A program made the translations under genes and the position numbers. 64,000 bases of DNA from an uncultured Desulfurococcaceae archaeon (GTDB taxonomy: Archaea; Thermoproteota; Thermoprotei_A; Sulfolobales; NBVN01): the NCBI GenBank assembly GCA_964627805.1, contig CAZVLA010000036.1, forward strand, positions 10,422 to 74,421, in the 5' to 3' direction. Position 1 is the first letter of the stretch. Each line of letters begins with the position of its first letter. Under the pieces are notes generated by a model, which saw nothing but the letters and a program-made list of their open reading frames with translations, was not told the origin of the DNA and ran no database searches. Positions 2,867-37,694 of this stretch are shown here, in pieces.

Positions 2867-3027
2867 AACACGTAACCACCCCACTGACATCACCTTAATA
2901 TACTGATCATGAGTTAAGATTCAGTTACTAATCCTAATGACTCTCAAGTACTTCATAACTACGCAGTACTTACTAACTCAAGTACTTATACCTCTACCCA
3001 ATAACATTACTTGGCGGTGCTTAGATC

Positions 3028-4152
3028 TTGAAATTCATTGAGGCTGTAGAGATTGAGTGGTTTAGAGGTATTAGGGAGGGGTTGATTGAGGGCTTCAGTG
3101 ACTTCACAGTATTAGTTGGTAGGAATGGTGCGGGTAAGTCAACGGTTCTTGAGGCTCTCTACCTAACCTCAGCATGGCTCAAGGAGACTGACGAGGTACG
3201 TAACACTAGTAAGTACGACTACGTAGTCTACAGACGCGGAGGTAGGGGTAGGTGGAGGAGCGCTAGCTACGCTCTATGGTACTCAATGGATACTAGTAGG
3301 GAGGTTAGGATAGCTATTAAATTTAGGGGTTTATGGAGAGAACTACTTATCTACCACAACACATCACCTCCTACTTGGTTAGTAATGCATGAGTGCATTA
3401 AGCAGAGGATTACGCAGGGATTCGGTCCTGCATACACTCATTACGAGTTACTGGGGTTTCGTGGAGGTACTACGTACCTAGCGAGGAAGGCACTTAAGGG
3501 GGGTGTAGCTACCTTCACTCATGAAGAGGTACTTAAGTACTTCACAGAGTGTTACCCAGTATTTACTGAGGTGCTAAGGAGTACCTTACTCATTGATGAG
3601 GCACTACTCCGCGACTTAGGAGTTGTTGAGAAGTATTCATGGCCTAAGGTCCTTTCTAAGAGGCTTGATAAGGAGGTTGTGAGGGTTATTAAGGAGGAGT
3701 TTGAGGTTGATGCTGAGGGACTTACGTACGCACCCGTAGGTGAGGATACGGTACTCCTCCTTCAGTTAAGTAATACTGCAGTAAGGATTGATGATTTAGG
3801 TGATGGTGCTAGACACGCAGTACTTACGATGCTCCTCCTACTAGCTACTAAGCCTAAGTTAATACTTATTGAGGAGCCCGAGAGTAAGTTACACCCCCGA
3901 GGGATGAGGGTACTTACGGAGGCTATCCTAAAGTACGCTAAGGAGTATGGTGCGCAGGTAGTCGTAAGTACTCATAGTATGGAGTTCATTAAGGTAGGTA
4001 GTGAATTAGCTAAGAGATTAGGTATTGAGATGTCACTAATACACTTAGAGAGGAGTAAGGATGGTGCGTTAATTACGAGGAGACTTAACCAACCCGACCT
4101 TAAGTTACTAACAGACTTAGGTATAGATCCTAGATTCTTAGACATGCTGTGA
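3028..4152 (+). CDS. ABC-type (AAA_15/AAA_21-like) ATPase, OLD/AriA/GajA-like
   Basis: 374 aa, TTG start. Walker A GRNGAGKST (nt 3118-3144), signature-like LGDGARHAV, Walker B/D-loop LILIEEPESKLHP, H-loop VSTHS. Confidence 0.75.
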   Translation: MKFIEAVEIEWFRGIREGLIEGFSDFTVLVGRNGAGKSTVLEALYLTSAWLKETDEVRNTSKYDYVVYRRGGRGRWRSASYALWYSMDTSREVRIAIKFRGLWRELLIYHNTSPPTWLVMHECIKQRITQGFGPAYTHYELLGFRGGTTYLARKALKGGVATFTHEEVLKYFTECYPVFTEVLRSTLLIDEALLRDLGVVEKYSWPKVLSKRLDKEVVRVIKEEFEVDAEGLTYAPVGEDTVLLLQLSNTAVRIDDLGDGARHAVLTMLLLLATKPKLILIEEPESKLHPRGMRVLTEAILKYAKEYGAQVVVSTHSMEFIKVGSELAKRLGIEMSLIHLERSKDGALITRRLNQPDLKLLTDLGIDPRFLDML

Positions 4153-4161
4153 CGGGAGAAG

Positions 4162-4839
4162 GTGGTATTAATGCTAATACAGCTAAAGCCTAGTGAGAGG
4201 AGCTTCGACGTATTCGTACTTAGTGATATCAAGAGTTTTAATGTTTTTATCCTCTGTGAAGGTAGGACTGAAGTAGAGGTTATTAAGTCACTATGTAGTA
4301 GGTTAGGAATAACTAGTGCTAAGTCAGTAGCTATTAGTGATTGTGAGGGTATTGATAGGGTCTATGGCTTAGTACCGTCTATTGCGTTACTATCTAAGTT
4401 ATCTAGGAGGTTGAGGGCACTTGCTGTAGTTACTGATGCTGATGAGTTAAGCTATGAGGGTAGGTTTAGGAGCTTAATTAATAGCTTAAGGTCTAGAGGT
4501 ATTAATGTTGTACTTAGTAATGACTACGTAGTAAGTAGTCAGTTATTTAAGGCCTTAATTAAGGCTAATGATAGGGAGCTCAAGTTTTACGTAGCAGTTA
4601 ACGGCATTAGTGAGTATAAATTCTCTAAACACGTGCTTGAGGACCACGTAATTAAGTTACTCGAGCTTGAAGGTGAAGTTAACGTCTCGGAACTCAGTAA
4701 TGTAAGTAACTCTAAGGAATTCATTAGGGAGCGAAGCATTAACGTCATTAAGGAGGTAGTGGATGCTGAGCCACGCCTCCTTAGGGAGTCCTTCAGTCAC
4801 TTAGTGAAGCTCATGGAGTTAGTACTTAAGGACCCTTAG
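4162..4839 (+). CDS. TOPRIM-like (OLD/DUF4435/DUF4276-type) putative nuclease partner
   Basis: 225 aa; starts 10-19 nt after the ATPase stop (GTG 4162 or ATG 4171). FILCEGRTEVEV gives Glu33 and AVVTDADE gives Asp92-x-Asp94, about 60 residues apart, which is the TOPRIM E...DxD pattern. No other domain recognised. Confidence 0.55.
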   Translation: MVLMLIQLKPSERSFDVFVLSDIKSFNVFILCEGRTEVEVIKSLCSRLGITSAKSVAISDCEGIDRVYGLVPSIALLSKLSRRLRALAVVTDADELSYEGRFRSLINSLRSRGINVVLSNDYVVSSQLFKALIKANDRELKFYVAVNGISEYKFSKHVLEDHVIKLLELEGEVNVSELSNVSNSKEFIRERSINVIKEVVDAEPRLLRESFSHLVKLMELVLKDP

Positions 4840-6901: not shown

Positions 6902-8224
6902 TTACTTACTGATTAGCTCCATACGTATCTCCTCGGCATTTACTAGTGCTTCATTACCTATTCCGAAGGTCTTAGTTATGATGCTTGGTAGGGTAGGTGT
7001 TAGTAGTCCGTTGAATACCTTCATACTTACCTCCTTTAGTGTGCCGTCACTCATGTACGTCATGCTCTCTAGGTTGGGGCTTAACTCGAGTACGTACGAC
7101 TTGCTACCTACCTCAATACCGTAGTAGGTCGTTAACACCTTAGCCTTAGATCCTTTATAGGTACTTACGTACTCAGTACTCCCTAGCTTAACTACTTTGA
7201 ATCTACATAACCTACGTAGTTTACTTAAGTCAATGCTCCACTTAATGAATTCTTCACTACTTGGGTTATAAGTGCAGTGCCTGATGAATGGTGGTGCCTT
7301 AATTAACTCTCTACACCTAACCAGCTTACTCACTAACTCCTTAGGTATTCTGAGGATCCTCTCATCCATGAGTAAAGTACCCTTGGGTAGTCCTTTGTAG
7401 TTGTTGCTGAATTCAATACCTGATGCCTTAAGTGAATTACCTACCTTATTTAAGTATATGACATCAGCTAGTGGGTATAGTGATTCCTTAATACTTAATG
7501 AGGGTTCACTCCATAACCTATAAATTATTAATGCCTCACCACTCCTTAGTACGTAATTCCCTAGCTTAAATATGAAGTCACCTAGAAACTCACCGTTAGT
7601 TCCCTTAGAAGCTCCTGTATACGTATTAACCGTTAATTCCTTAGTTATATTTAGGTACTTGAACTTAGCGATGTAATGATTACCTACCTTAATCCACCTA
7701 CTACTGACCTTAGGTAACGGCTTGTAGGAGATCCCGCAAGTAGCTATTCCGTTAATAAAGCTTAGAGTTACCTTAGCTCTTATGTACTCACCGCTACCGT
7801 AGGTATGTATGATAATCCTCAACTCCTTAGATACTACGATGCAGGAGGTACTTTCAAGCTCCCTTAAATACTTAAGAATCTCATCCTTAGGTAATTTAGA
7901 CCCACTGGCGATTAGCGATTTAACCCTTAAGTATAGTGTGTAGTTACTGTGTAGGGGTACTACGAACCTATAACTACTTAAGTCTGTACTACCAACTACC
8001 TTCCTAAGGTCATCCTTAAACATACTCAGCGCCATTCCGGAGCTTAAACTACCGTAAGGCACTACTTCATACACTAGGTACTTAGTGAGGCTTGCTCTCA
8101 CTCGTAAGTAACTATAAGTGGGTACTATCGTTAATGTTACTGAACATATCACAATAGCGCAGATCAAGCTTATTAATACTATTTTAACGTGCTTCATGGA
8201 CATCACCTCTTTTAACTCAGACAT
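6902..8224 (-). CDS. Hypothetical N-terminally anchored or exported protein
   Basis: 440-aa ORF. Hydrophobic segment HVKIVLISLICAIVICSVTLTIV follows alternative ATG starts at 8203/8197. Overlaps or abuts the upstream 173-aa ORF. No motif recognised. Confidence 0.5.
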   Translation of the reverse strand: MSELKEVMSMKHVKIVLISLICAIVICSVTLTIVPTYSYLRVRASLTKYLVYEVVPYGSLSSGMALSMFKDDLRKVVGSTDLSSYRFVVPLHSNYTLYLRVKSLIASGSKLPKDEILKYLRELESTSCIVVSKELRIIIHTYGSGEYIRAKVTLSFINGIATCGISYKPLPKVSSRWIKVGNHYIAKFKYLNITKELTVNTYTGASKGTNGEFLGDFIFKLGNYVLRSGEALIIYRLWSEPSLSIKESLYPLADVIYLNKVGNSLKASGIEFSNNYKGLPKGTLLMDERILRIPKELVSKLVRCRELIKAPPFIRHCTYNPSSEEFIKWSIDLSKLRRLCRFKVVKLGSTEYVSTYKGSKAKVLTTYYGIEVGSKSYVLELSPNLESMTYMSDGTLKEVSMKVFNGLLTPTLPSIITKTFGIGNEALVNAEEIRMELISK

Positions 8225-8733
8225 AGACCACTTAAGGTAGCCTCTACGGAAGGTCTTACGTTGTCACACCAGTTAATCTCCACTGATGTAGATGTCGCAT
8301 CACCAGCGGGATAGAATGTCATTGAAACGGATCCGTCAAAGTCTAGTACCCTTATGTAGACAAACCACTCACCTAAAAGACGATAACCGAAGTCCATACG
8401 TGCTGCAGCAGTAATTACGCAGCATATTCCTCCGTCCACAACATATCCGTCTGCTCTTCCGCCACCACTAGAACTATAAGGATCTGTTCCCGTAATCCAC
8501 GCTTCTACAACTATAGAGTCACAGGAGCTACTACCTGAATTGTAGCAGTCAGGATCGGAGGTACTTAGGACGTTATGCTCACTTTCCACAGTACTTATGT
8601 TATTTGTGCTTCCCGCCCAAACACCTTTCATAGTAATAATAGCTACGATTACAGAAGCCACTATTAATATCACCGTCACAGTCGCTAATTTATTAGCTCC
8701 TATATTTAATCTCAATATAGACGCCTTCTCCAA
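8212..8733 (-). CDS. Small Cys-rich exported protein, atypical codon usage
   Basis: 173 aa, TTG start (uncertain). Signal-like segment LATVTVILIVASVIVAIITMKGVWA followed by GS. Seven Cys. Gly GGA, Arg AGA/CGT and Tyr TAT are used repeatedly, unlike neighbouring genes. Confidence 0.5.
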   Translation of the reverse strand: MEKASILRLNIGANKLATVTVILIVASVIVAIITMKGVWAGSTNNISTVESEHNVLSTSDPDCYNSGSSSCDSIVVEAWITGTDPYSSSGGGRADGYVVDGGICCVITAAARMDFGYRLLGEWFVYIRVLDFDGSVSMTFYPAGDATSTSVEINWCDNVRPSVEATLSGLCLS

Positions 8734-27853: not shown

Positions 27854-30800
27854 TTGGTGGGTAGTGGGTTAGTTAGGTGCTTAACGTTCGTGGTTTCCGT
27901 GTTAGTGATTACTTCATTAGTGGTTCCGGTAGTTCATGTATTGGGTAGTGACTTAAGTAGTGATTACTTGGTGTGGTTCTCTAAGCGTAGCTTAAGTGAC
28001 TACGTACTTATTCAGGCGTTTAGGTTTAGGAGGTGGCCCGATAGGTTAGGGCCTAACCCGTTGGTTGAGAGGTATAGGAATCCGTGGTCTGGGACGTACT
28101 CTGGGTATGAGGGTGTCATTAACTACTTAATATCCCTCTACTACTTCAAGGGTATAGTCCCTAAGTACGAGGTAGTGCCCCCGCTACTTAAGAGGGTTAG
28201 GGAGTTAATGCCTTACTACCCCCTCTACGGGATCTACGAACCGCTTAAGGACGGTGAGGTACTTAGGGATGGTGACGTAATAACCGTGCCTAAGGGTGAG
28301 TCAGTAATCATTGCTTTAGGACCTAAGCTAGTGCTCAATTATGTCAATAAGTTCTTGAGGGGGGCTACCTTTGAGGCTGAAGTAACGCACCCACTAAGTA
28401 ATTACTCACTACTAGGTGAGGTTAGGAAGTACAGCTTAAGCCAGTACGCCGCCTTAGTACCTCTCTACCTAAGTAGTAAGGTGAATTACTACCTATACCT
28501 AACACTACTCAATAGTAACTTCATGAGGGTCCATAAGGAACTACCTAACCTACCGCCATCGCTAAACCCCTTCAGTAGGTCATCATCAATAGTGATCACC
28601 TACGAAATCATAGGTAATGACGGAGCCGCTTGGGTATTCATTGGCGCCCCCAGTAAGTACGTACCGACTAGCTACTTCAGGAGGGCTGAGGAGCTAGCTA
28701 GGAATGAAGTACGTGGGTTGAGACTAGCGAGTACCGTACCTGTAATACAGCCTACGCAGTACTTCATAGCTGGTAATGAGGCACTTAGGGAGGGTAGTAA
28801 GGGTGTCTTAGTAGTTAGGGAGGACGTACTAAGTAGTAACTACTTAATAGTAACTATAAACCCGAGAAAGTACTCAGGTACCTTCAAGATAAGGTTCAAG
28901 GCATACATAGTACCTAGGGGTAGGGAATTCGTAATTAGGGAATTCATTAGGTACGGCTTACGTAAGGATGAGGTAATGAAGTACCCTAAACTAAGGGAAT
29001 TCACACTAACCTTCAAGGTAGGTCCTGAGTACTGGAGGATCCTCGAGGGTAGTAGAGGAGCGAGTATTAGGAGCTCTAAAGCGGATGGGGTAGAGGTGAG
29101 TAACTCCTTAACTAAGGCGGAGATCGTGGGTTACGGTTACTTCGGCGAGGCTATACTGAGGGTTACTGAGTACAGGGACTCGAAGCACTCCTACAGTAGT
29201 CAAGTACTGTATCAGTCAATATTCGGTTCAGGGGTCTACCGTGTGTATAGGTCTAGGGACGTACTCAGGATTAAGTCAGTGGCTTACTTCCCCTTAGGAG
29301 GGGCTACGCCATTACCTAGTGGTGCACCGATAATTATGGAGTCACCTAAGGTTACTAAGTACGTAGCTGTTAAGTCCTTCTACAGCTACTACGACATAAT
29401 ATCGTATAAGTACTCAGTCTTCACGGACCCATGCGGTAATAGTGCTTGGCTCGATAAGTGGATGCACCCCCTATGTAAGTACGCCTACGAGATCATGGGT
29501 GAGACTAACCTATGGCTAACCTACCCCCTATACCAATACAGGTACTACATCGTAGAGCTAACTAGGATGGCTAACGATAACCTAAGGAGCTTCGGTAGTC
29601 ACTGCTTCATTAAGTTCCCATGCCTAATGTACGGTAATTTCATGAGTCTCTTCGATAGGCTCAAGCTAGCCCCAATACCAAGTAGCGTAATAGGTGAGTT
29701 GGATTATAGGGTACCGCCTAGTTGGTGGGGTGTGTTAGGAGTTAATGAAGCTAATGACTTCATATACGACGTAGGCATCGATGCTTACTACTCAGTATAT
29801 GATACCTACTTAAAGGCTAGGATACTCTTCTCCGTACTAGACCTAAGTAGGTTCGGGAAGGTCAGAGTAACTTACTTCGGTAAGTACGATAAGTACGTAG
29901 TGAGTGTGAGGACCTCCCTAGGATTCACTAGGTACGTAAGCCCACCACCCACCTACCTACAAGGAATTAACGAATTAACTTTAGGCGGTATAGTCTCCGG
30001 AACCTTAGCAGGTACGTACTACGTAGCCGGTAAGTTCATTAAGCGCGAGGTCAGGATGGAGGTACCTAACTTCACTATCAAGTCGATGTACATAGTAACT
30101 AATAAGGTGTACTACTCCCTGGGGGATGAGGTCACTGCCTACATACACCTACTTAAGGGTAAGGAACCATTAATGAGTAACTCAATAAGGGTGGTAGTCA
30201 CCCTTAATCATAGGTACTTAAGTAAGCCTAAGGTAATCCTCACTAAGAGATTAAGTACGGACTCATCAGGTACTGCTAAGTTAGTCTTTAAGCTACCTAC
30301 CTACGAGGAATTCTCCAGGGAGTTGAGGGAAGGCGGGAGCAGTAAGTTACCCCCCATCATTAAGTTAGAGATAATCGCCTACGACGACGTTAATAAGCTG
30401 GACTACGTAGCTGAGCGCTGGGTATTGATGGGGGTTGTATTCATCGAGTTAATGGATGTTAAGTCAGTAATATCGCCTAACGTAAACAGTAACTACCCAC
30501 TAATCGAGTTCAGGGATAGGTACTCAGCTAAGTCATTCAGTGACTTACGTAGCCTGTGGTTAATCGACTCAAGAAATAGTAATAAGTTGGTCGTGGAGCT
30601 CAACATCTACGATAGAGTAACTGGTGAGTTGGTTAAGAACCTAAGGCTTAGCAGCCCCTTCGCAGTTATTAAGTTACCTATGGGTGATTACTCGGCCGAG
30701 GTAATCGTCAGGATTAATGACTTAAGCGATGCTTACGTACTTAAGACCCAACTATATAACTTCACGATAGATGAGACCATAACGATGGGTGCGGCACCCG

Positions 30801-33800
30801 TAGTCGAGATTGACGTACCCGTTACGTTGGTAATGAATGCCTTAGAGGTTGAGTCCCAGCTCGAGAAGCTCCAGTACGTCGACGCGACACTACTTAATTC
30901 CGTAATATCCAGCATTAAGAACGTACTAAATAAAGGCGTTAGTAAGTCGGCGGACTTCCTCGATGAGCTAGTAGTCATTAGTAAGGCAGTTAGTAGGGTA
31001 TGTAGTGAGTTAGGTGGTTACGTAGGTAGTAGATGCAGTAAATTAGCTAATTACCTAGTAAGTACCTACTCAGCACCTAGTAACTACTTAAGTAAGTTAA
31101 TCCTAGTTAAGACACCCATTAAGGTCAGATTGATTAGGGAGTACTTAGGGCCTTACATAACGGGTTCTAAGAGGCTACCTAGGTACGGTAGGGACTCCCT
31201 AAGCAACCCGGATAGCTTCTGGTCTAGGCTAGTTAGGGCTACCTTAGTTGAGGCCGTAGTCATTAATAGGTACTACAGGTCAGTGAAGCTTATACACTCG
31301 TCCGTGTACTACGTGAATGACCTCCTATGGGACGTCATTGACGTTACTAAGTTAGGTGAGTTAATATCTGAGATGCGTAGGGCATCCTCCCCGGACGTAA
31401 TCGATGTTAAGGCCCTTGAGGAGGACCTACTTAAGGGCTCAGGCCCCTTCATGAATTACCTTAAGGAGCTTAAGTCATTAGGTGGTTACTCCGTATTTGA
31501 TAAGCTCAATGAGGAGTTAGTTAAGGATGTAGGTGACTTACGTAATGACATCGTTAATGTAGTAGTTAATACGTTCATTAGTCAATCAATTAAGAGCCTC
31601 GTTAGTAACGTAATGATTGGTAAGGTACTGAGTAAGGCCATGAACCTAACATCAAGCGACTTAAGCTACTTAGATACTGAATTAACTAATGAACTCACTA
31701 AACTAGCTACACCACTAACCCACCTAGCATTAAGTAGGGTAGGCGTCACTAAGAAACTACTTGGTTACGACGCGGTACCACCGGATAAGGTATTCAGTAC
31801 TGACTTACGGGGGGCCTTAGGCGCTGTTCTTGATGAGGCTATGAAGTTAGGTACTAAGTTAGTAGCTCATTACGTAGCTGAGGAGTACATAGTTAATGAG
31901 TTAGTACCTAAGCTTAAGGAATTCCTTAAGTACTCAGTAGGTAGCATACTGCATAGGCATAACGCAGGATCTACTCGGGTAATTATTGACTACGTAAGCA
32001 CATTAACGAGCTTCGTAGGTGACGTTGACGGTAGTATGGATGACCTCATGAGTACCTACTCACTAGCTACTAACCCGTTAGGGGCACTTACTAAGCACTT
32101 AAGCTTCATAAGTAGCTACGAGCTTAAGGGGTATAAGGCATTAGAGAGTTCGAGGGCTTTACTGGAGCTAATCGAGGCTAGTAAATCACCTGTGGTATCA
32201 CCCTACAGAGGCACGGAACTCGAGCCACTGATTAGTAAGGTCTACTCTAAAGTGATTGACGGTCTAGGATCGAGGAGCTTCGCATCCAAGAAGCTCTCGT
32301 GGCTGGTTAAGAACCTTAAGGAGGTATTCGGGGAGGCTGGTGAGGGGTTTAGGAGGGCTACCTCACAATTAATGATTATATACCTACTCAAGATAAGTGT
32401 TGAGGGCTTCCTAGCGTACAGTACGTGGACAGCAGGTACCTTAGGTACGGAGTTAGTCCTTAAGTCACTACACTACGAGGTTAAGGGGGTACCCGTAGTT
32501 AGGGCTGATGAGGTCGCTCAAGCATACGCGGGTATCTTCAAGTACTTCCTAAACATAGCTCCGGGGTGGACACTCTCGATTCAATCACAGATCAGTATGT
32601 CGGGTAGTAAGTACTCAGTAAGTGACTTAAGTACGTCATACGTAGTCAGTAACTCACCAAGGATTAAGGACCTAAGCACCCTCGTGAGTAGCGTAGGCGT
32701 TAACTCATTCAGTACTAGATTCGCTAGGCTTAAGGAATTAATCAGTAAGTTAGTATCCAGTAACTACTTAATGGGTAGGGACTTAATCGAGGCCTTAAAC
32801 CTCACTGACTCAACCTACCATGACTTAGGGATAGTGATTAAGGCGTTAGGTAGTGGCTTAATCAGTAGGGAAGGGGTAGGTATTAATGAATTAGTGAACC
32901 TACTAAGTACTTACTACGTACTGAGGCTAGTTAGGGACTCCATCCTCCAGCTATACGCGTCACCCATAATCACCCTCAACCGCTCCGAACTAACTATACT
33001 AATGAATGCCTTAATGAGGTCCTCAAACACCCTTGACGACCTAATGAGCAGGTTAGTTAGTGGGTTAGGTAGTGATGAGGCGGTGGTATTCGTTGATGCC
33101 TACGTAAGTAAGGCAGGTATCCACGGACTGAACAGTACGTTAAGGTTACTAGTAACTACGTACTCAGGAGGTACTCACGAGTTAGTGATTAGGTTCAGAC
33201 CCTTAAGGAACGTAGTTAGGTTAGGTAGGGACGAGGTTAGGCTTAAGCTAGGTAATGGATTAAGGAGGTACGGCGTAACCAATTACGTAATCATGAAGAA
33301 CCCCGTAAGGTACGGCTTAGTCGAGGTTAAGGCATTCCTTGACGGTAGGTTAGTGAGTTACTCAGTAGTTAGGACTGAAGCTATTAGTGACTTCAAGAAG
33401 TTAGTCGTTGGTAACTTAATCATTAATTACTTAGTAAGCATGCCTAAGGTAGTTATTAAGGACGGGGCTATTAGGTTAAGTAACTTAACCAGTAAGGACT
33501 ACGTAGTTATCTACTTACCTAAGGTAGGTAGCGGTGCTAAGCCTGAGTTAGTATGTAGCGGTAACTACACGTCCGTAATCATTGACTTAGGTAGGTACTA
33601 CGTAATTAAGGTTACTTATGACTCAGTAGGTAGTTTAGTGATTAAGTACTCACTGAAGCACGAATCCTACATAGCTAACCTCGGGGAGGGTAAGGTTATT
33701 TACGAAGGAAGCGGTGAGGTACTACAGCACTCTAAGGTATTGAGTAGGGAGGTGGTTAGTAAGTCAGTAGGAACTACTACCGGGACCTACGGAACCCCAT

Positions 33801-33982
33801 TAAGCAGTAGTAGGGGTGAGGGATTAGCGAGTGGTGAGGTACTGAGTACCTCCTCAGTAGCCAAGGCTAAGGCAGGGGCTAGTCCTCTCGGCTACGTAGT
33901 TGTGACTTACGTACTAGTAACTACCCTAGTAGCTGCTTTCGTAACTTACCTAATCATTAGGAGGAGGGGAGGAGGTGGTTGA
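27854..33982 (+). CDS. Giant (2042 aa) exported protein with C-terminal membrane anchor; function unknown, candidate envelope stalk/anchor
   Basis: Uninterrupted 6.1-kb ORF. N-terminal hydrophobic segment LTFVVSVLVITSLVVPVV. Ser/Thr/Gly-rich tract (GTTTGTYGTPLSSSRGEG...STSSVAKAKAG), then TM YVVVTYVLVTTLVAAFVTYLII and RRRGGGG at the C-terminus. No catalytic motif recognised. Confidence 0.7.
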   Translation: MVGSGLVRCLTFVVSVLVITSLVVPVVHVLGSDLSSDYLVWFSKRSLSDYVLIQAFRFRRWPDRLGPNPLVERYRNPWSGTYSGYEGVINYLISLYYFKGIVPKYEVVPPLLKRVRELMPYYPLYGIYEPLKDGEVLRDGDVITVPKGESVIIALGPKLVLNYVNKFLRGATFEAEVTHPLSNYSLLGEVRKYSLSQYAALVPLYLSSKVNYYLYLTLLNSNFMRVHKELPNLPPSLNPFSRSSSIVITYEIIGNDGAAWVFIGAPSKYVPTSYFRRAEELARNEVRGLRLASTVPVIQPTQYFIAGNEALREGSKGVLVVREDVLSSNYLIVTINPRKYSGTFKIRFKAYIVPRGREFVIREFIRYGLRKDEVMKYPKLREFTLTFKVGPEYWRILEGSRGASIRSSKADGVEVSNSLTKAEIVGYGYFGEAILRVTEYRDSKHSYSSQVLYQSIFGSGVYRVYRSRDVLRIKSVAYFPLGGATPLPSGAPIIMESPKVTKYVAVKSFYSYYDIISYKYSVFTDPCGNSAWLDKWMHPLCKYAYEIMGETNLWLTYPLYQYRYYIVELTRMANDNLRSFGSHCFIKFPCLMYGNFMSLFDRLKLAPIPSSVIGELDYRVPPSWWGVLGVNEANDFIYDVGIDAYYSVYDTYLKARILFSVLDLSRFGKVRVTYFGKYDKYVVSVRTSLGFTRYVSPPPTYLQGINELTLGGIVSGTLAGTYYVAGKFIKREVRMEVPNFTIKSMYIVTNKVYYSLGDEVTAYIHLLKGKEPLMSNSIRVVVTLNHRYLSKPKVILTKRLSTDSSGTAKLVFKLPTYEEFSRELREGGSSKLPPIIKLEIIAYDDVNKLDYVAERWVLMGVVFIELMDVKSVISPNVNSNYPLIEFRDRYSAKSFSDLRSLWLIDSRNSNKLVVELNIYDRVTGELVKNLRLSSPFAVIKLPMGDYSAEVIVRINDLSDAYVLKTQLYNFTIDETITMGAAPVVEIDVPVTLVMNALEVESQLEKLQYVDATLLNSVISSIKNVLNKGVSKSADFLDELVVISKAVSRVCSELGGYVGSRCSKLANYLVSTYSAPSNYLSKLILVKTPIKVRLIREYLGPYITGSKRLPRYGRDSLSNPDSFWSRLVRATLVEAVVINRYYRSVKLIHSSVYYVNDLLWDVIDVTKLGELISEMRRASSPDVIDVKALEEDLLKGSGPFMNYLKELKSLGGYSVFDKLNEELVKDVGDLRNDIVNVVVNTFISQSIKSLVSNVMIGKVLSKAMNLTSSDLSYLDTELTNELTKLATPLTHLALSRVGVTKKLLGYDAVPPDKVFSTDLRGALGAVLDEAMKLGTKLVAHYVAEEYIVNELVPKLKEFLKYSVGSILHRHNAGSTRVIIDYVSTLTSFVGDVDGSMDDLMSTYSLATNPLGALTKHLSFISSYELKGYKALESSRALLELIEASKSPVVSPYRGTELEPLISKVYSKVIDGLGSRSFASKKLSWLVKNLKEVFGEAGEGFRRATSQLMIIYLLKISVEGFLAYSTWTAGTLGTELVLKSLHYEVKGVPVVRADEVAQAYAGIFKYFLNIAPGWTLSIQSQISMSGSKYSVSDLSTSYVVSNSPRIKDLSTLVSSVGVNSFSTRFARLKELISKLVSSNYLMGRDLIEALNLTDSTYHDLGIVIKALGSGLISREGVGINELVNLLSTYYVLRLVRDSILQLYASPIITLNRSELTILMNALMRSSNTLDDLMSRLVSGLGSDEAVVFVDAYVSKAGIHGLNSTLRLLVTTYSGGTHELVIRFRPLRNVVRLGRDEVRLKLGNGLRRYGVTNYVIMKNPVRYGLVEVKAFLDGRLVSYSVVRTEAISDFKKLVVGNLIINYLVSMPKVVIKDGAIRLSNLTSKDYVVIYLPKVGSGAKPELVCSGNYTSVIIDLGRYYVIKVTYDSVGSLVIKYSLKHESYIANLGEGKVIYEGSGEVLQHSKVLSREVVSKSVGTTTGTYGTPLSSSRGEGLASGEVLSTSSVAKAKAGASPLGYVVVTYVLVTTLVAAFVTYLIIRRRGGGG

Positions 33983-36900
33983 TGTGGGTTTGTTAGGTAG
34001 GTCTAAACCCTTAGTAGCTACATTAATCGTAGTAGCTGCAATCCTAGCGACTACCCCCTACGTAACTCAAGTAAGTGCTGATTACTACACACTTAAGGTA
34101 GTCACTAACAAACCATTATTCGCTGTATTCATTAACGGTACGTTCAAGGGGCTCTACGACACGGAAGCTCTACTGAGGTTAAGGAGGGGTACTTACGAAG
34201 TATCGTTAATTAGCGTAGGTACTGATTGGGTTAACCGCACGGTAGTACTCAACAGTAATAAGGTAGTTAAGGTGGGGTTAGGGATTGGTGGGTACGTAAG
34301 TATTAAGGCGTTGATTAAGGGACCGACTAACTACGGAGGGACAGTCAAGGCATGCATATTTAAGAACGGGCGCTTAAGCAGTACTACATTCATAAGTAAT
34401 AACTCCGTACTTGAGATGGTCCCTAAGTTACGTAGTACGTTGCTGGGACTGGGTATTGAGGGTGGCGAGTTAGTTAATTACGTAGTAGGTCCTAAAGAGG
34501 CTAGGGAAGGTAGGTTAATTATAAAGTATAAGGACTTAGGGTTAGGTCTGCTGAAGGTAGTACCAGTAACTAGTAATGTGGAGGACCTCCGTGGAGGAGT
34601 GAAGGCATTAGTGGTTAACGGTAAGTACGTAGTAGTTCTTAAGGAGTACGGAGGTAATTACGTAGTAGCCCTACGTAAGGGTAGGTACAGGGTTAAGTTA
34701 GTAGTGACTCCTTACTGCTCAGACATGAGTAACTGCCCTCAAGGAATTACCTACATGTCCGACGAGACTACAGTAAACGTCGCTCCCGGGGAGTTGAGGG
34801 AGGTAGTGCTTAAGGTCAGACCAACCTACGCGCGCTCCATGAGGTTCGTCATCCATGCTAAGTACTTAGGGAGGAGGTACTTAACGTACAGTAACGTATT
34901 CGGGCTACCTACGTGGGCTCCGGGGTCGACGTACTTACTAGATAATAAGTTAGTACTGATTAATGGTGAGGAATTAGCACTACTCACTAGAAGTAGTGAC
35001 TACGCACTCCTAAGGATGGACCTAAGTAACTTAAGTAGGTTCAACATCACGTTACTCTCACCAACCTACGGGGTGAAGTCAGTCCGTACCGACGTCTCCC
35101 CCAAGTCACTGCAGGTGAGGTCTGAGGTGGTATTGAGTGTTAAGTTAGGTAGGGTCGTGTTTAGGGGTTTGAGGGGTTACTTAGGACCTAGTACGTACGT
35201 ATTAATTAATGGTGAGTTAGTTAATACGGTACCTACTTCATACTTAGAGAGTCAAGGGATGTACCTACCACGGGGTAGGTGGTGCATTAAGTTACTGAGT
35301 ATGAACTGGCGTACGTACACTATGTACGAGGTTAGTAAGTGCTTGAGTATTAGGGGTTACGACTACTTAGTCATCGATAGTGGTAACTACACCTTAAGGA
35401 AGTACCCGTACTTAAGTACGTCAGTAACCAATAGTAAGTTCAAGTACGTAAGCATTAACTTAGTCGGTATTAACTACAGATCGACCTACGACTTAAGGGC
35501 CTTAGTACTAATTAATGGTGAGCCAGTAGCTTATAAGTACTTAAGAGGGAGTAAGGGTGTTCTATCGCTAGTTAATGCCTTCATACCAGCTAACGTAAGT
35601 AACTCCTCCGTAATCAAGATTAAGGCTTTAGTAAGGGACGTAAGGACGGGTGCGCTGTACGTTGGTGAGTCCGAAGTAACTGCCTCCGGCGCGTTACTTG
35701 TTAACGTACGTATGAGGAGGGTTAATGGCGACTTAATCATCGACTTAAGGAGCGGTGGTAGGGATTACAGGATATACGCAGTAGGTAATTGGGTTGACGG
35801 TCACTTCGTAGGTGCTGTTAGTGGGGGTTACGGAAGCTCCACTAAGTACGTACTTAGGGGGTTGAGCTTAGGTAGGCATAGTGTTAAGTTACTGGTTAAG
35901 GTATGCCGTAGGTACGTATGCTCCCTAATCAGTAGGGAGTACTTAGTGAGTGTCGGTTCTGGGGATAACTCATTAAGTGTGTTAGTCAGTAGTAAGGACT
36001 TCAACGAAGCGTTAGGTAGGGCTAAGTTAGTGATTAAGGGTAAGTTAGGTTCCCGGAACCTACTAATGATTAGTAAGTCCGGTGAGGCTAGGTTATGCTC
36101 TACCTACTTAGCTAGGGAGGACATCACTATCGACGGTCTTAAGCTAGGTGATGAGGTTAAGATAGTGAGTAGTAACGACACCGTAGTGTTCAAGGAAATC
36201 AACGGCGACGTAGTAGCTCTAGGACCTACTAACTACTACACTAACTGGGTTAGGTTGAGTGACTTAGTTAATGAAGTTAATTTAAGGAGTGACTACGCTT
36301 ACCTACTAGTGAATTTAGGTAGGAGGGTTAAGGGTGAGGCAGTAGCTATTGATTCCGAAGGTACCGTACGTTCAGTAAGTAGTAAGTCATACAAGGCGTT
36401 TGGGGAGTACAGTAACTACCTAGTAATACCCGTTAGTGCAGGCTACTTCAGACTACTTAAGCTCTACATCACGGTATCTAGCCACGTACTTACCCCCGGA
36501 GGGGGTAGGGAGTACTACCTAGTCCTTAGTAATAAGTTACTCGATCCTGGTAAGTACTACGTAATACCCCGTACCTCCTTAAGACCCGCTACGGCCACCT
36601 TAGTAGTTAAGCCAGTAAGTAGCGTTACTGGGGAGCCCGTATACCTTGAGTTAATGGCTCTATTCATTAACGGGACCTTCGTAAAGGCAGTTACCCTAGT
36701 CCCTAACTCCATCAACTACGTACTCCTTAACCTACCCATAAACCTCACCTACAGAATATCGATTTACTCAAGGAACTACGAACTACGTAACTACGTAGTT
36801 AAGTTAGTTAGGGATTACCAGGTAGTTGAGTTACCGATGAGGTTGAGGAGCGGTGAGGTACCTACTTACGTGTACTTAAGTGAGGTAGTTATTGATGGTA

Positions 36901-37694
36901 GTAAGTACTTAGAGGTCGTTATGAGTATTGAGGACTCATCACCCCTCAAGAACGTACTTCCCGAGAATGTAGACTTAGTAATTAATGGTGAGGCCTACGT
37001 AATGAGTAAGTACTCAGGGGGTTCGTGGGTAGCACTAATACCTACTAAGCTCCTACGTAAGGGCATTAACCACTTAGTAATAACTGCCGGTGATGTTAAG
37101 CTCCATGAACGTACATTCACCTTAAGCAGTACCGAGGTAGTTACTGAGTTCAGTAGGTACTTGGTTAGGGTTGGTGAGGGGGTTAAGGTTAGGGTTAAGG
37201 TATTTAATGCCTCAGAACCCCTCAGTAGGTACTCATTAGTTATTACCTACGTAAGTACATCAAGCAACGTAAGTAATTACCTAGCGTACGTCACGGAGTT
37301 GAGCAGTAGTGAATTACTCATTAATTGGGTACCTAAGGAGGCAGGGATCTACGTAGTAACTACTAAGCTCCTTAAGGACGGTGAGTTAATTAGTAAGTAC
37401 GTTAGTAGGGAATTAATCGTCGTACCTAAGGATGAGACGACACTACTTAAGTTCATACCTGAGGTAGCGGGTAATGCGTTAGTTATTGATGGTTTAGCGT
37501 ACGTACCTTGGGGTAATGAAGTACGGGTTAAGGTATTCATCAATAACTCACTAGTCCATGAGGGTGTGGTTAAGGGTTACGTATTCAAGTATTCAGTAAG
37601 GGTAGGTAGGGGTAGTACATACGTAGTTAGGGTTGAGTACGTAGTCGATGGTGAATCAGTAGCAACTGAAGAAGCTATCGTTAGGGTTAAGTGA
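33975..37694 (+). CDS. Large (1239 aa) secreted multi-repeat beta-rich protein (PEGA-like modules); function unknown, candidate envelope lattice protein
   Basis: Overlaps the upstream stop by 8 nt (GTG 33975). An alternative GTG at 33984 is preceded by SD-like GGAGGTG (33971-33977). Signal-like LVATLIVVAAILATT ... QVSA/DY. Recurrent [LFV][IV]NG[ET] motif; many N-x-S/T sequons. Confidence 0.7.
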   Translation: MVDVGLLGRSKPLVATLIVVAAILATTPYVTQVSADYYTLKVVTNKPLFAVFINGTFKGLYDTEALLRLRRGTYEVSLISVGTDWVNRTVVLNSNKVVKVGLGIGGYVSIKALIKGPTNYGGTVKACIFKNGRLSSTTFISNNSVLEMVPKLRSTLLGLGIEGGELVNYVVGPKEAREGRLIIKYKDLGLGLLKVVPVTSNVEDLRGGVKALVVNGKYVVVLKEYGGNYVVALRKGRYRVKLVVTPYCSDMSNCPQGITYMSDETTVNVAPGELREVVLKVRPTYARSMRFVIHAKYLGRRYLTYSNVFGLPTWAPGSTYLLDNKLVLINGEELALLTRSSDYALLRMDLSNLSRFNITLLSPTYGVKSVRTDVSPKSLQVRSEVVLSVKLGRVVFRGLRGYLGPSTYVLINGELVNTVPTSYLESQGMYLPRGRWCIKLLSMNWRTYTMYEVSKCLSIRGYDYLVIDSGNYTLRKYPYLSTSVTNSKFKYVSINLVGINYRSTYDLRALVLINGEPVAYKYLRGSKGVLSLVNAFIPANVSNSSVIKIKALVRDVRTGALYVGESEVTASGALLVNVRMRRVNGDLIIDLRSGGRDYRIYAVGNWVDGHFVGAVSGGYGSSTKYVLRGLSLGRHSVKLLVKVCRRYVCSLISREYLVSVGSGDNSLSVLVSSKDFNEALGRAKLVIKGKLGSRNLLMISKSGEARLCSTYLAREDITIDGLKLGDEVKIVSSNDTVVFKEINGDVVALGPTNYYTNWVRLSDLVNEVNLRSDYAYLLVNLGRRVKGEAVAIDSEGTVRSVSSKSYKAFGEYSNYLVIPVSAGYFRLLKLYITVSSHVLTPGGGREYYLVLSNKLLDPGKYYVIPRTSLRPATATLVVKPVSSVTGEPVYLELMALFINGTFVKAVTLVPNSINYVLLNLPINLTYRISIYSRNYELRNYVVKLVRDYQVVELPMRLRSGEVPTYVYLSEVVIDGSKYLEVVMSIEDSSPLKNVLPENVDLVINGEAYVMSKYSGGSWVALIPTKLLRKGINHLVITAGDVKLHERTFTLSSTEVVTEFSRYLVRVGEGVKVRVKVFNASEPLSRYSLVITYVSTSSNVSNYLAYVTELSSSELLINWVPKEAGIYVVTTKLLKDGELISKYVSRELIVVPKDETTLLKFIPEVAGNALVIDGLAYVPWGNEVRVKVFINNSLVHEGVVKGYVFKYSVRVGRGSTYVVRVEYVVDGESVATEEAIVRVK

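Follow-up and report, generated by a model that had tools for sequence, protein, structure and literature searches.

Among split pairs that couple an ABC ATPase to a TOPRIM protein, a role in defence has been proven for PARIS, and AbiL and MADS have been listed as well (PMC11464382). In PARIS, AriA sequesters AriB until a viral trigger frees AriB to cut tRNA. In the OLD family, P2 Old forms an inactive tetramer, and once this is destabilised the TOPRIM site opens and tRNA can be cleaved, whereas the nucleases of Class 2 use two-metal catalysis to nick and degrade DNA (PMC6755086); OLD Classes 3 and 4, and hence PARIS, are restricted to bacteria according to the Cran1 paper. Here, we analyse a gene pair at positions 3028 to 4839 of a 64,000-nucleotide (nt) stretch of DNA (hereafter, the window) from an uncultured Desulfurococcaceae archaeon (contig CAZVLA010000036.1), which an earlier note had read as a split, archaeal OLD/PARIS-like module. 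The first gene encodes an ATPase of 374 amino acids (aa) and the second a protein of 222 aa (hereafter, the partner). The pair is very probably a two-gene operon of split OLD-type architecture, in which an ABC ATPase is combined with a nuclease made of a TOPRIM and a helical domain, and we favour, with more reserve, a role in defence or abortive infection.

The ATPase gene and its TOPRIM partner

Strict adjacency and co-divergence of the two genes, their domain identities and their conserved catalytic residues are direct observations. The partner gene follows the ATPase gene immediately and on the same strand in 13 of 13 loci, which are independent beyond near-duplicates and were found via either protein, and the two form separate open reading frames (ORFs) in all of these loci as in the window. 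For ten loci in which both ends could be read, the gap between the genes ranges from -11 to +29 nt. Across ten loci, the pairwise identities of the ATPase and of the partner correlate (Pearson r = 0.85, Mantel p ~2e-4), and therefore the pair is inherited as a unit, with the partner evolving faster (mean identity of 36%, versus 43% for the ATPase). An all-against-all comparison of the flanking ORFs of 11 loci revealed no third gene common to the loci; the only recurrent flanking ORFs were PIN/antitoxin pairs and pieces of a further AAA_15/21 ATPase. The loci that carry a taxon name belong to metagenome-assembled genomes (MAGs) of Thermoprotei, Bathyarchaeia, Candidatus Culexmicrobium, Baldrarchaeota/Baldrarchaeia and Njordarchaeales, and all homologues whose records give a source or a title are archaeal, in line with the earlier assignment. 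The two genes and their motifs are as follows, where conservation refers to an alignment of 61 homologues for the ATPase and to 52 full-length members for the partner family, and partner residues are numbered in the 222-aa form throughout.

3028..4152, + strand: ATPase gene, 374 aa, TTG start, TGA stop at 4150-4152; AAA_15/AAA_21 ABC ATPase (OLD/AriA/AbiLi-type), predicted sensor/regulator subunit
3118..3141, + strand: Walker A/P-loop GRNGAGKS, residues 31-38; G31, N33, G36, K37 and S38 invariant
3796..3822, + strand: ABC signature-like LGDGARHAV, residues 257-265; G258 and G260 invariant, L257 and D259 in at least 90%
3859..3897, + strand: Walker B and D-loop LILIEEPESKLHP, residues 278-290; L280, E282, P284, E285, H289 and P290 invariant
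3967..3978, + strand: H-loop (switch) STHS, residues 314-317; T315, H316 and S317 in at least 90%, Q310 invariant
4171..4839, + strand: DUF3226-family partner gene, 222 aa; N-terminal TOPRIM, beta-hairpin insert and C-terminal helical domain, predicted metal-dependent nuclease effector
4252..4263, + strand: TOPRIM glutamate motif LCEG, residues 28-31, where beta1 ends; E30 and G31 in 52/52
4270-4272, + strand: Glu34, four residues past Glu30; Asp or Glu at position 34 in 52/52
4336..4350, + strand: SDCEG motif after beta2, residues 56-60; G60 in 52/52, D57 in 39/52
4432..4446, + strand: TOPRIM DxD within TDADE, residues 88-92, after beta3; D89 in 49/52 (Asn in 3)
4630..4647, + strand: HVLEDH (HxxEDH), residues 154-159, leading into the helical domain; candidate second metal site

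The ATPase matches the Pfam families AAA_21 (E = 5.8e-22) and AAA_15 (E = 1.2e-21), well beyond what chance would give, and, more weakly, SMC_N and DUF2813. Its best match among the PADLOC profiles is the AbiLi profile PDLC02336 (E = 8.2e-28, 96 bits), which alone spans the protein from end to end (residues 3-368 against positions 1-339 of 340). Further PADLOC matches are, in order, AriA (8.1e-24, with profiles that cover only residues ~228-321), PDC-M38A (7.8e-21), NsnB (7.4e-20), HEC-01A, Old and mad3 (4.3e-18), and the NCBIfam equivalogs all lie far under their cut-offs (MAD3, NF047739, 59.6 of 420 bits; recF, TIGR00611, 31.7 of 172 bits). A word-seeded search returned 174 homologues of ~325-400 aa, from which the 61 aligned sequences were taken; those named by source all come from archaeal MAGs (Thermoprotei, Desulfurococcales, Baldrarchaeia, Njordarchaeales and Archaeoglobales). 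The Walker A, signature-like, Walker B/D-loop and H-loop motifs that had been described for the 374-aa protein could all be located and are conserved. Since the listed residues of the P-loop and the Walker B/D-loop are invariant, as is Q310, and those of the H-loop are nearly so, the ATPase looks catalytically competent from its sequence. Its AlphaFold2 (AF2) model, which has a predicted local distance difference test score (pLDDT) of 94.8 and a predicted template modelling score (pTM) of 0.93, matches Rad50/SMC heads, the defence ATPase PtuA and retron-associated ATPases with E ~1e-13 in Foldseek. In this predicted model, residues ~90-250, between the P-loop lobe and the signature, form a beta-rich insert of short strands and helices without a long coiled coil.

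The partner scores 45.7 bits against Pfam DUF3226 (PF11536; gathering cut-off 27, E = 8.8e-12), in an alignment that joins only residues 30-114, counted in a 225-aa form of the protein, to profile positions 4-86 of 208. The OLD-like_TOPRIM profile falls just under its threshold for the window protein (20.8 versus 23.2 bits, E = 5.9e-4), and the PADLOC profiles give PDC-M38B (5.8e-7, 27 bits, first ~85 residues only) and mad4 (4.4e-4). Near homologues are few, with four found in a word search. When a family profile was run against 1.84 billion cluster representatives, the family grew to 155 clusters at E<=1e-3, of which 93 reached E<=1e-10, and the representative proteins are nearly all 200-235 aa long and align over their full length. 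Across the 52 members, DUF3226 lies above its cut-off in 49, and 27 match OLD-like_TOPRIM (best E = 1.1e-7); PADLOC returns PDC-M38B for 27/52 (best 1.4e-8), mad4 for 17/52, and scattered matches to Old, GajA, AriAB (1/52) and HEC-01B. The profile check that the earlier note had proposed gave AAA_15 and AAA_21 for the ATPase, and OLD-like TOPRIM below threshold in the window and as a match in about half of the family. Further, hhalign aligns the partner family with the TOPRIM domain of P0271, a fused protein that matches AAA_21 (2e-8) and OLD-like_TOPRIM (3e-14), at 97% probability and with 43% identity over beta1-alpha1-beta2, where the common segment reads ILCEGxTDxEV...VAIxDCxG. The SDCEG motif of the window protein has its counterpart in ADCGG of P0271.

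The predicted fold agrees with this assignment. The AF2 model of the partner (pLDDT 93, pTM 0.90) consists of beta1 (25-29), alpha1 (32-44), beta2 (53-57), alpha2 (61-74), beta3 (83-89), alpha3 (95-108) and beta4 (112-114), followed by beta-hairpins (120-144) and a helical domain (157-220) that opens with helix 157-166. The TOPRIM signature has been described as a Glu that follows beta1 together with a DxD that follows beta3 (PMC12065111), and the partner model places its own Glu and DxD in these two positions. Glu30 and Asp89 are 59 residues apart, close to the spacing of about 60 noted before. In Foldseek, the top five matches in the Protein Data Bank (6njv, 6njx, 6nk8_B, 6nk8_A and 6njw) all come from the C-terminal part of Class 2 OLD nucleases (BpOLD/XccOLD), with probabilities of 0.94-0.99 and E-values from 8e-4. 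Altogether, DUF3226 membership, the hhalign result, the order of strands and helices and the OLD fold matches bear out the view of the second protein as a TOPRIM protein.

The conserved residues of the partner extend beyond the TOPRIM signature. Position 91 is acidic in 43/52 members (D in 22, E in 21, N in 9), and within HxxEDH, H154 is kept in 44/52, E157 in 46/52 (Asp in 5), D158 in 50/52 and H159 in 39/52 (Tyr in 13). K182 is kept in 43/52. An N-terminal strand of the form xQLKP is conserved as well (Q4 45/52, L5 44/52, P7 32/52). The catalytic set of the B. pseudomallei OLD nuclease comprises E400, E404 (Glu+4), D455, D457, T506/E508, where the helical domain starts, and K562 (PMC6755086). 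By position, E30, E34, D89, D91, E157/D158 and K182 of the partner would map onto these residues in the order given. The top sequence-profile match in the Protein Data Bank, which is weak (E = 0.2), is 2P62 (Pyrococcus horikoshii PH0156), the solved structure for DUF3226. It shares an hhhhEGKTD motif with the partner, and its acidic VRDVDE lines up at the DxD position; the top 50 Foldseek matches of the partner do not include 2P62. Separately, the search of cluster representatives returned P0222 (401 aa), a fusion of the initial ~80 residues of the partner-family sequence (with QLKP, LCEG and TDCGG) with an HhH motif and with a DUF763 domain. P0222 stops before the DxD and may be a chimeric or rearranged gene.

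The boundaries of the two genes can be read as follows.

2867..3027, + strand: upstream intergenic region, presumed site of the operon promoter
near 2984-2989, + strand: TATA-like element TTATAC, in the upstream intergenic region
near 3013-3019, + strand: GGCGGTG, immediately 5' of the TTG start
4153..4170, + strand: intergenic spacer, containing the alternative GTG start 4162
4161-4165, + strand: Shine-Dalgarno-like GGTGG ahead of ATG 4171

A stop codon lies two codons 5' of TTG 3028, and therefore a longer reading frame for the ATPase is impossible. The partner can start at GTG 4162 (225 aa, 9-nt gap to the ATPase gene) or at ATG 4171 (222 aa, 18-nt gap), and the latter is the start annotated in a 99%-identical contig of the European Nucleotide Archive (L001). 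Consequently, the 225-aa ORF reported before is there, and the reported gap of 10-19 nt is off by at most one. Both window ORFs are intact, full length and carry every family-invariant residue, and their proteins are 99-100% identical to copies in independent assemblies. The gene pair is real, well formed and apparently functional; it is probably of thermophile origin and makes up a compact system of 43 kDa plus 25 kDa.

Relation to described systems

The pair resembles PARIS in its layout, in which a gene for a split AAA_15/21 ABC ATPase is followed by a separate, co-evolving gene for a TOPRIM nuclease, and the PADLOC AriA profiles match 61/61 members of the ATPase family. The components differ. 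AriB of PARIS is a DUF4435 protein of ~35 kDa, whereas the partner is a DUF3226 protein of 25 kDa; AriA is ~55 kDa and forms a hexamer by means of coiled-coil insertions, whereas the smaller ATPase studied here is predicted to carry its beta-rich insert instead. PARIS is also bacterial, whereas the named members of the DUF3226 pair family are all archaeal. DUF4435 (PF14491) was found neither in the partner at E<=1 nor in the 52 members at E<=0.01, and membership in PARIS is rejected. Hence, of the OLD/PARIS-like label, the OLD-type ATPase plus TOPRIM architecture holds and the PARIS part does not, and the suggestion of a distinct subfamily is upheld by a partner that belongs to DUF3226 and not to the DUF4435 of AriB. 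The survey of AAA15/21 defence ATPases in the PARIS paper gives a domain list without DUF3226.

For AbiL, the AbiLi profile likewise matches 61/61 ATPase family members (best 1.3e-38). A score of 96 bits for the window protein indicates that the ATPase is a distant relative of AbiLi and not an orthologue, and AbiL membership is rejected, with no AbiLii match in the partner at E<=1 and in 0/52 members at E<=1e-3. The PADLOC candidate system PDC-M38 is weakly matched by both window genes, one for each of its two components, A and B. The PDC-M38A profiles have 367-383 positions, compared with 374 aa in the ATPase, and PDC-M38B has 220, compared with 222 aa in the partner. PDC-M38A matches 61/61 ATPase family members (best 7.9e-36), and PDC-M38B is the best PADLOC match of the partner family, weak and confined to the N-terminal ~85 residues. 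No paper in the searchable literature mentions PDC-M38. HEC-01 likewise combines an ABC ATPase with a small TOPRIM protein.

Members of OLD Classes 1-3 (P2 Old, GajA and the retron Eco8 effector) are single polypeptides of ~520-700 aa, whereas the pair consists of separate genes. Since this split into two ORFs recurs at every one of the 13 loci, identity with Classes 1-3 is rejected. In OLD proteins of Class 2, the C-terminal region is made up of a TOPRIM and a helical domain (PMC6755086), and the partner shares this two-domain layout with the OLD nucleases, as the ATPase shares their ATPase class. Near the window pair, we found neither a UvrD-like helicase gene, as in Gabija, nor a reverse transcriptase or non-coding RNA, as in retrons.

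Mad3/Mad4 of MADS and NsnB/NsnC-DUF4276 of Menshen also pair an AAA_15/21 ATPase with a small effector of the TOPRIM superfamily, and DUF4276 has been described as a TOPRIM (PMC12065111). Pfam DUF4276 is matched neither by the partner nor by its 52-member family, and as such neither of the two profiles that the earlier note had put forward for the partner, DUF4435 and DUF4276, was found in it. MADS is rejected on the low MAD3 score given above and on neighbours that are prefoldin, peptidase and phosphoesterase genes; no other MADS or Menshen gene lies in the window neighbourhood.

A precedent for archaeal members of the OLD family is provided by Cran1 (Sulfolobales, clade U11), an archaeal ATPase plus TOPRIM nickase. 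Cran1 is fused, limited to Sulfolobales, vertically inherited and essential, whereas the DUF3226 pair is split, spread across phyla, incongruent with taxonomy and sometimes pseudogenised. Membership in the Cran1-type clade U11 does not fit a split pair with homologues beyond Sulfolobales and with identities that depart from taxonomy. Altogether, the pair is an archaeal variation, not described before, on the theme of ABC ATPase plus TOPRIM, plausible and not surprising to a specialist.

Genomic context and alternative roles

We consider a role in defence or abortive infection the likeliest function of the pair, at moderate confidence. The family is rare (155 clusters), yet it is scattered over several phyla, and its identities do not follow taxonomy. 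Specifically, a Baldrarchaeia copy (L006) is 57% identical to the Culexmicrobium copy and 44% to a Baldrarchaeota copy (L012), and two Bathyarchaeia copies, 41% identical, are no closer to each other than to others. The neighbourhoods of the pair differ at every locus; thus, the homologues do not sit consistently in one housekeeping operon, and consistent embedding of that kind is what the earlier note had named as speaking against its reading. Approximately 8 of 14 loci resemble variable regions, with PIN toxin-antitoxin, HEPN-nucleotidyltransferase (NTase), other AAA_15/21 or ATPase_2 genes. PIN genes with RHH or MazE antitoxins occur at L002, L004, L006, L009, L015 and L029, HEPN-NTase pairs at L006 and L029, PF01637 ATPase_2 genes at L009 and L029, and a TnpB-like gene at L002. 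Additional AAA_15/21 ATPases or fragments of them adjoin the pair at L007, L011 and L015, which suggests clusters of related ATPase modules. Among other AAA_15/AAA_21 genes seen at the loci, those at L007 840-4226 and L008 126-3509 are each followed by a small ORF, and those at L015 9074-10035 and L011 792-1810 are split.

At some loci, the partner gene is damaged. In L011 (Thermoprotei archaeon B17_G15 MAG, 3146-3760), an in-frame TAG replaces the Glu59 codon (TDC*G) downstream of an intact ATPase gene, either as a pseudogene or as a sequencing error. In L002 (7157-7813) and L003 (3528-4183), the partner is frameshifted after approximately residue 22 and split into ORFs of 40 and 145 aa, with an intact ATPase; the remainder of the gene keeps all catalytic motifs, and the two assemblies may share reads. 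Thus, the nuclease gene alone may be damaged in two lineages, with sequencing error in the MAGs as an alternative. In L030 (7052-7660), the partner homologue is divergent (202 aa; 47.8 bits against the family profile) and reads FGNG at the site of LCEG, so that the TOPRIM Glu is lost.

Several observations weigh against a defensive role. PDC systems are predictions that derive from embedding in BREX, DISARM or type I restriction-modification loci of RefSeq genomes, and such embedding is not present at the window pair; HEC-01 gave no protection in its assay; and the archaeal OLD-family protein Cran1 has a non-defence role in the cell cycle. In the searchable literature, we found no experimental study of any member and no paper that mentions DUF3226. 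The template modelling scores of the partner in Foldseek are modest (0.35-0.46 over ~222-239 columns). The window copy, in addition, bears no sign of recent acquisition. The guanine-plus-cytosine (GC) content of the ATPase gene is typical (z = -0.02), and that of the partner gene is low (z = -2.25), with a GC content at third codon positions within the range (z = -0.94) and with other genes equally low. ARAGORN found no tRNA gene in the 64-kb window, which also has no Rfam family at gathering score; the flanks of the pair hold only short repeats at chance level; and there was no relative of the partner in IMG/VR viral contigs, phage records or plasmids, no ATPase match on plasmids and no significant fold match in BFVD. 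The setting is a housekeeping one in the window and at three further loci. In L014, the pair lies between RNase P subunits and a folate enzyme; in L030, it lies among amino-acid metabolism genes; and in L031, it lies between leucine-biosynthesis genes and a NurA plus DUF87 (HerA-like) pair. Lastly, adjacency to PIN genes is given little weight, because one of three control loci, chosen as those of the closest prolyl-oligopeptidase orthologues, also has two PIN genes within 6 kb (L027).

These points feed an alternative in which the pair is a housekeeping module for genome maintenance or chromatin, acting on cellular DNA during repair, the restart of replication or the cell cycle, in the manner of Cran1 or RecF/RecR. 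The housekeeping flanks and host-like base composition of the window pair, together with the three other loci just described, fit such a module, and Cran1 provides a non-defensive precedent among archaeal OLD-family proteins. The protein sizes are near those of RecF (an ABC ATPase of ~360 aa) and RecR (~200 aa, TOPRIM-containing), the ATPase has its best fold matches in Rad50/SMC heads, and it gives a weak N-terminal match to TIGR00611 recF (8.9e-8). However, that match stays at 31.7 bits against a cut-off of 172 and aligns the P-loop region alone, and the partner has no RecR-related, zinc-finger or HhH match in Pfam at E<=1, and RecF/RecR membership is not supported. Its best folds are regions of OLD nucleases, and no RecR chain is found among the 50 Foldseek matches listed. 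Moreover, a rare and patchy family with a tree that departs from taxonomy and with no conserved neighbourhood is unlike Cran1, which is vertically inherited in Sulfolobales; the pair is absent within 6 kb at the three closest prolyl-oligopeptidase orthologue loci; and the nuclease gene is disrupted in two lineages. We therefore regard a genome-maintenance function as unlikely.

A second alternative holds that the pair is a selfish, toxin-antitoxin-like addiction module, in which a nuclease toxin is kept in check by the ATPase, loss of the module kills the cell and there is no dedicated antiviral role. The tight two-gene layout with a presumably toxic effector downstream agrees with this, as do the recurrence of the pair beside PIN/RHH/MazE and HEPN-NTase modules, the inactivation of the effector gene alone in L011 and L002/L003 with loss of the catalytic Glu in L030, and the Pfam label of AAA_21 ("putative AbiEii toxin, Type IV TA system"). 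However, plasmids, viruses and viral contigs, which commonly carry addiction modules, yielded no copy, and a 374-aa ATPase with fully conserved catalytic motifs would be an unusually costly antitoxin. The characterised systems of the same architecture are infection sensors, and the boundary between addiction and abortive infection is itself blurred. An addiction module is, in our judgment, an improbable explanation. Finally, that the pair is a decayed or inert remnant, whose ORFs keep their motifs and have lost their function in the window genome, is very unlikely: the housekeeping context and the disrupted partner genes of some homologues would allow it, but it has against it two intact ORFs with every family-invariant residue, their near-identical copies in independent assemblies and very confident structure models for both proteins.

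In the window, the 5' neighbours of the pair are genes for prefoldin alpha, prefoldin beta and an S9 prolyl oligopeptidase, and its 3' neighbours encode a calcineurin-like metallophosphoesterase and an M48 peptidase (Pfam), so that the housekeeping flanks described earlier are indeed there. The three prolyl-oligopeptidase orthologue loci (57-60% identity) show no synteny with the window, and a metagenome scan with the downstream phosphoesterase yielded only short or distant contigs. No other prolyl oligopeptidase in the database exceeds 64% identity to that of the window. A PaREP1-family gene lies ~450 bp 5' of the prefoldin genes, just upstream of the first base of the window, in the longer contig L001 from the same organism (3238-3723). 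About 2 kb downstream of the pair, two overlapping ORFs of 440 aa (6902-8224, - strand) and 173 aa (8212-8733, - strand) have no Pfam match, and genes are called at the matching position in the near-identical contig L001. Further along the window, ORFs of 2042 aa (27854-33982, + strand) and 1239 aa (33975-37694, + strand) overlap by 8 nt and have no Pfam match at E<=1e-3. In L031 (8343-10892), the NurA gene, itself a weak match, and the DUF87 gene lie ~0.5 kb 3' of the pair, past one small ORF on the opposite strand.

Possible mechanism and significance

For the defensive role that we favour, we infer complex formation, a trigger, a substrate and an antiviral outcome by analogy. As in PARIS, P2 Old and Gabija, the ATPase would dimerise or oligomerise, bind the nuclease and hold it inactive. 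It would sense an infection cue, such as a viral protein or aberrant nucleic acid, and ATP binding or hydrolysis would free or activate the nuclease. The activated nuclease would then either nick DNA or cut tRNA, two substrates between which we make no choice, and the infected cell would be arrested or the invader destroyed. Catalysis would take place in a predicted two-metal centre, in which Glu30, Asp89 and Asp91 form the metal A site and Glu34, with the Glu157/Asp158 pair of HxxEDH, forms the metal B site, and Lys182 is the candidate counterpart of the catalytic lysine.

More tentatively, the pair and ~100-150 archaeal metagenome clusters may form a fifth class of OLD-family systems that is split, based on DUF3226 and specific to archaea, a reading that we hold to be possible and rather doubtful. 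If true, it would provide the first function for DUF3226 and for the orphan structure PH0156 (2P62). The logic of such a class would be unlike that of PARIS, with a compact ATPase that carries a beta-rich insert instead of a coiled coil; the conserved QLKP strand of the nuclease would dock on the ATPase, and the helical HxxEDH would supply the second metal. It might also have a non-antiviral role in lineages where the pair sits among core genes.

Very few archaeal defence systems have been characterised, and the sole archaeal OLD-family protein that has been studied, Cran1, is not defensive. The pair gives DUF3226 a likely function, and with its compact size and confident predicted folds it offers a tractable model for the control of a TOPRIM nuclease by an ABC ATPase sensor. 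Since the family is found in housekeeping as well as island-like contexts, with a nuclease that is sometimes inactivated, it is a useful test of whether archaeal OLD-type modules serve immunity, addiction or domesticated genome maintenance.

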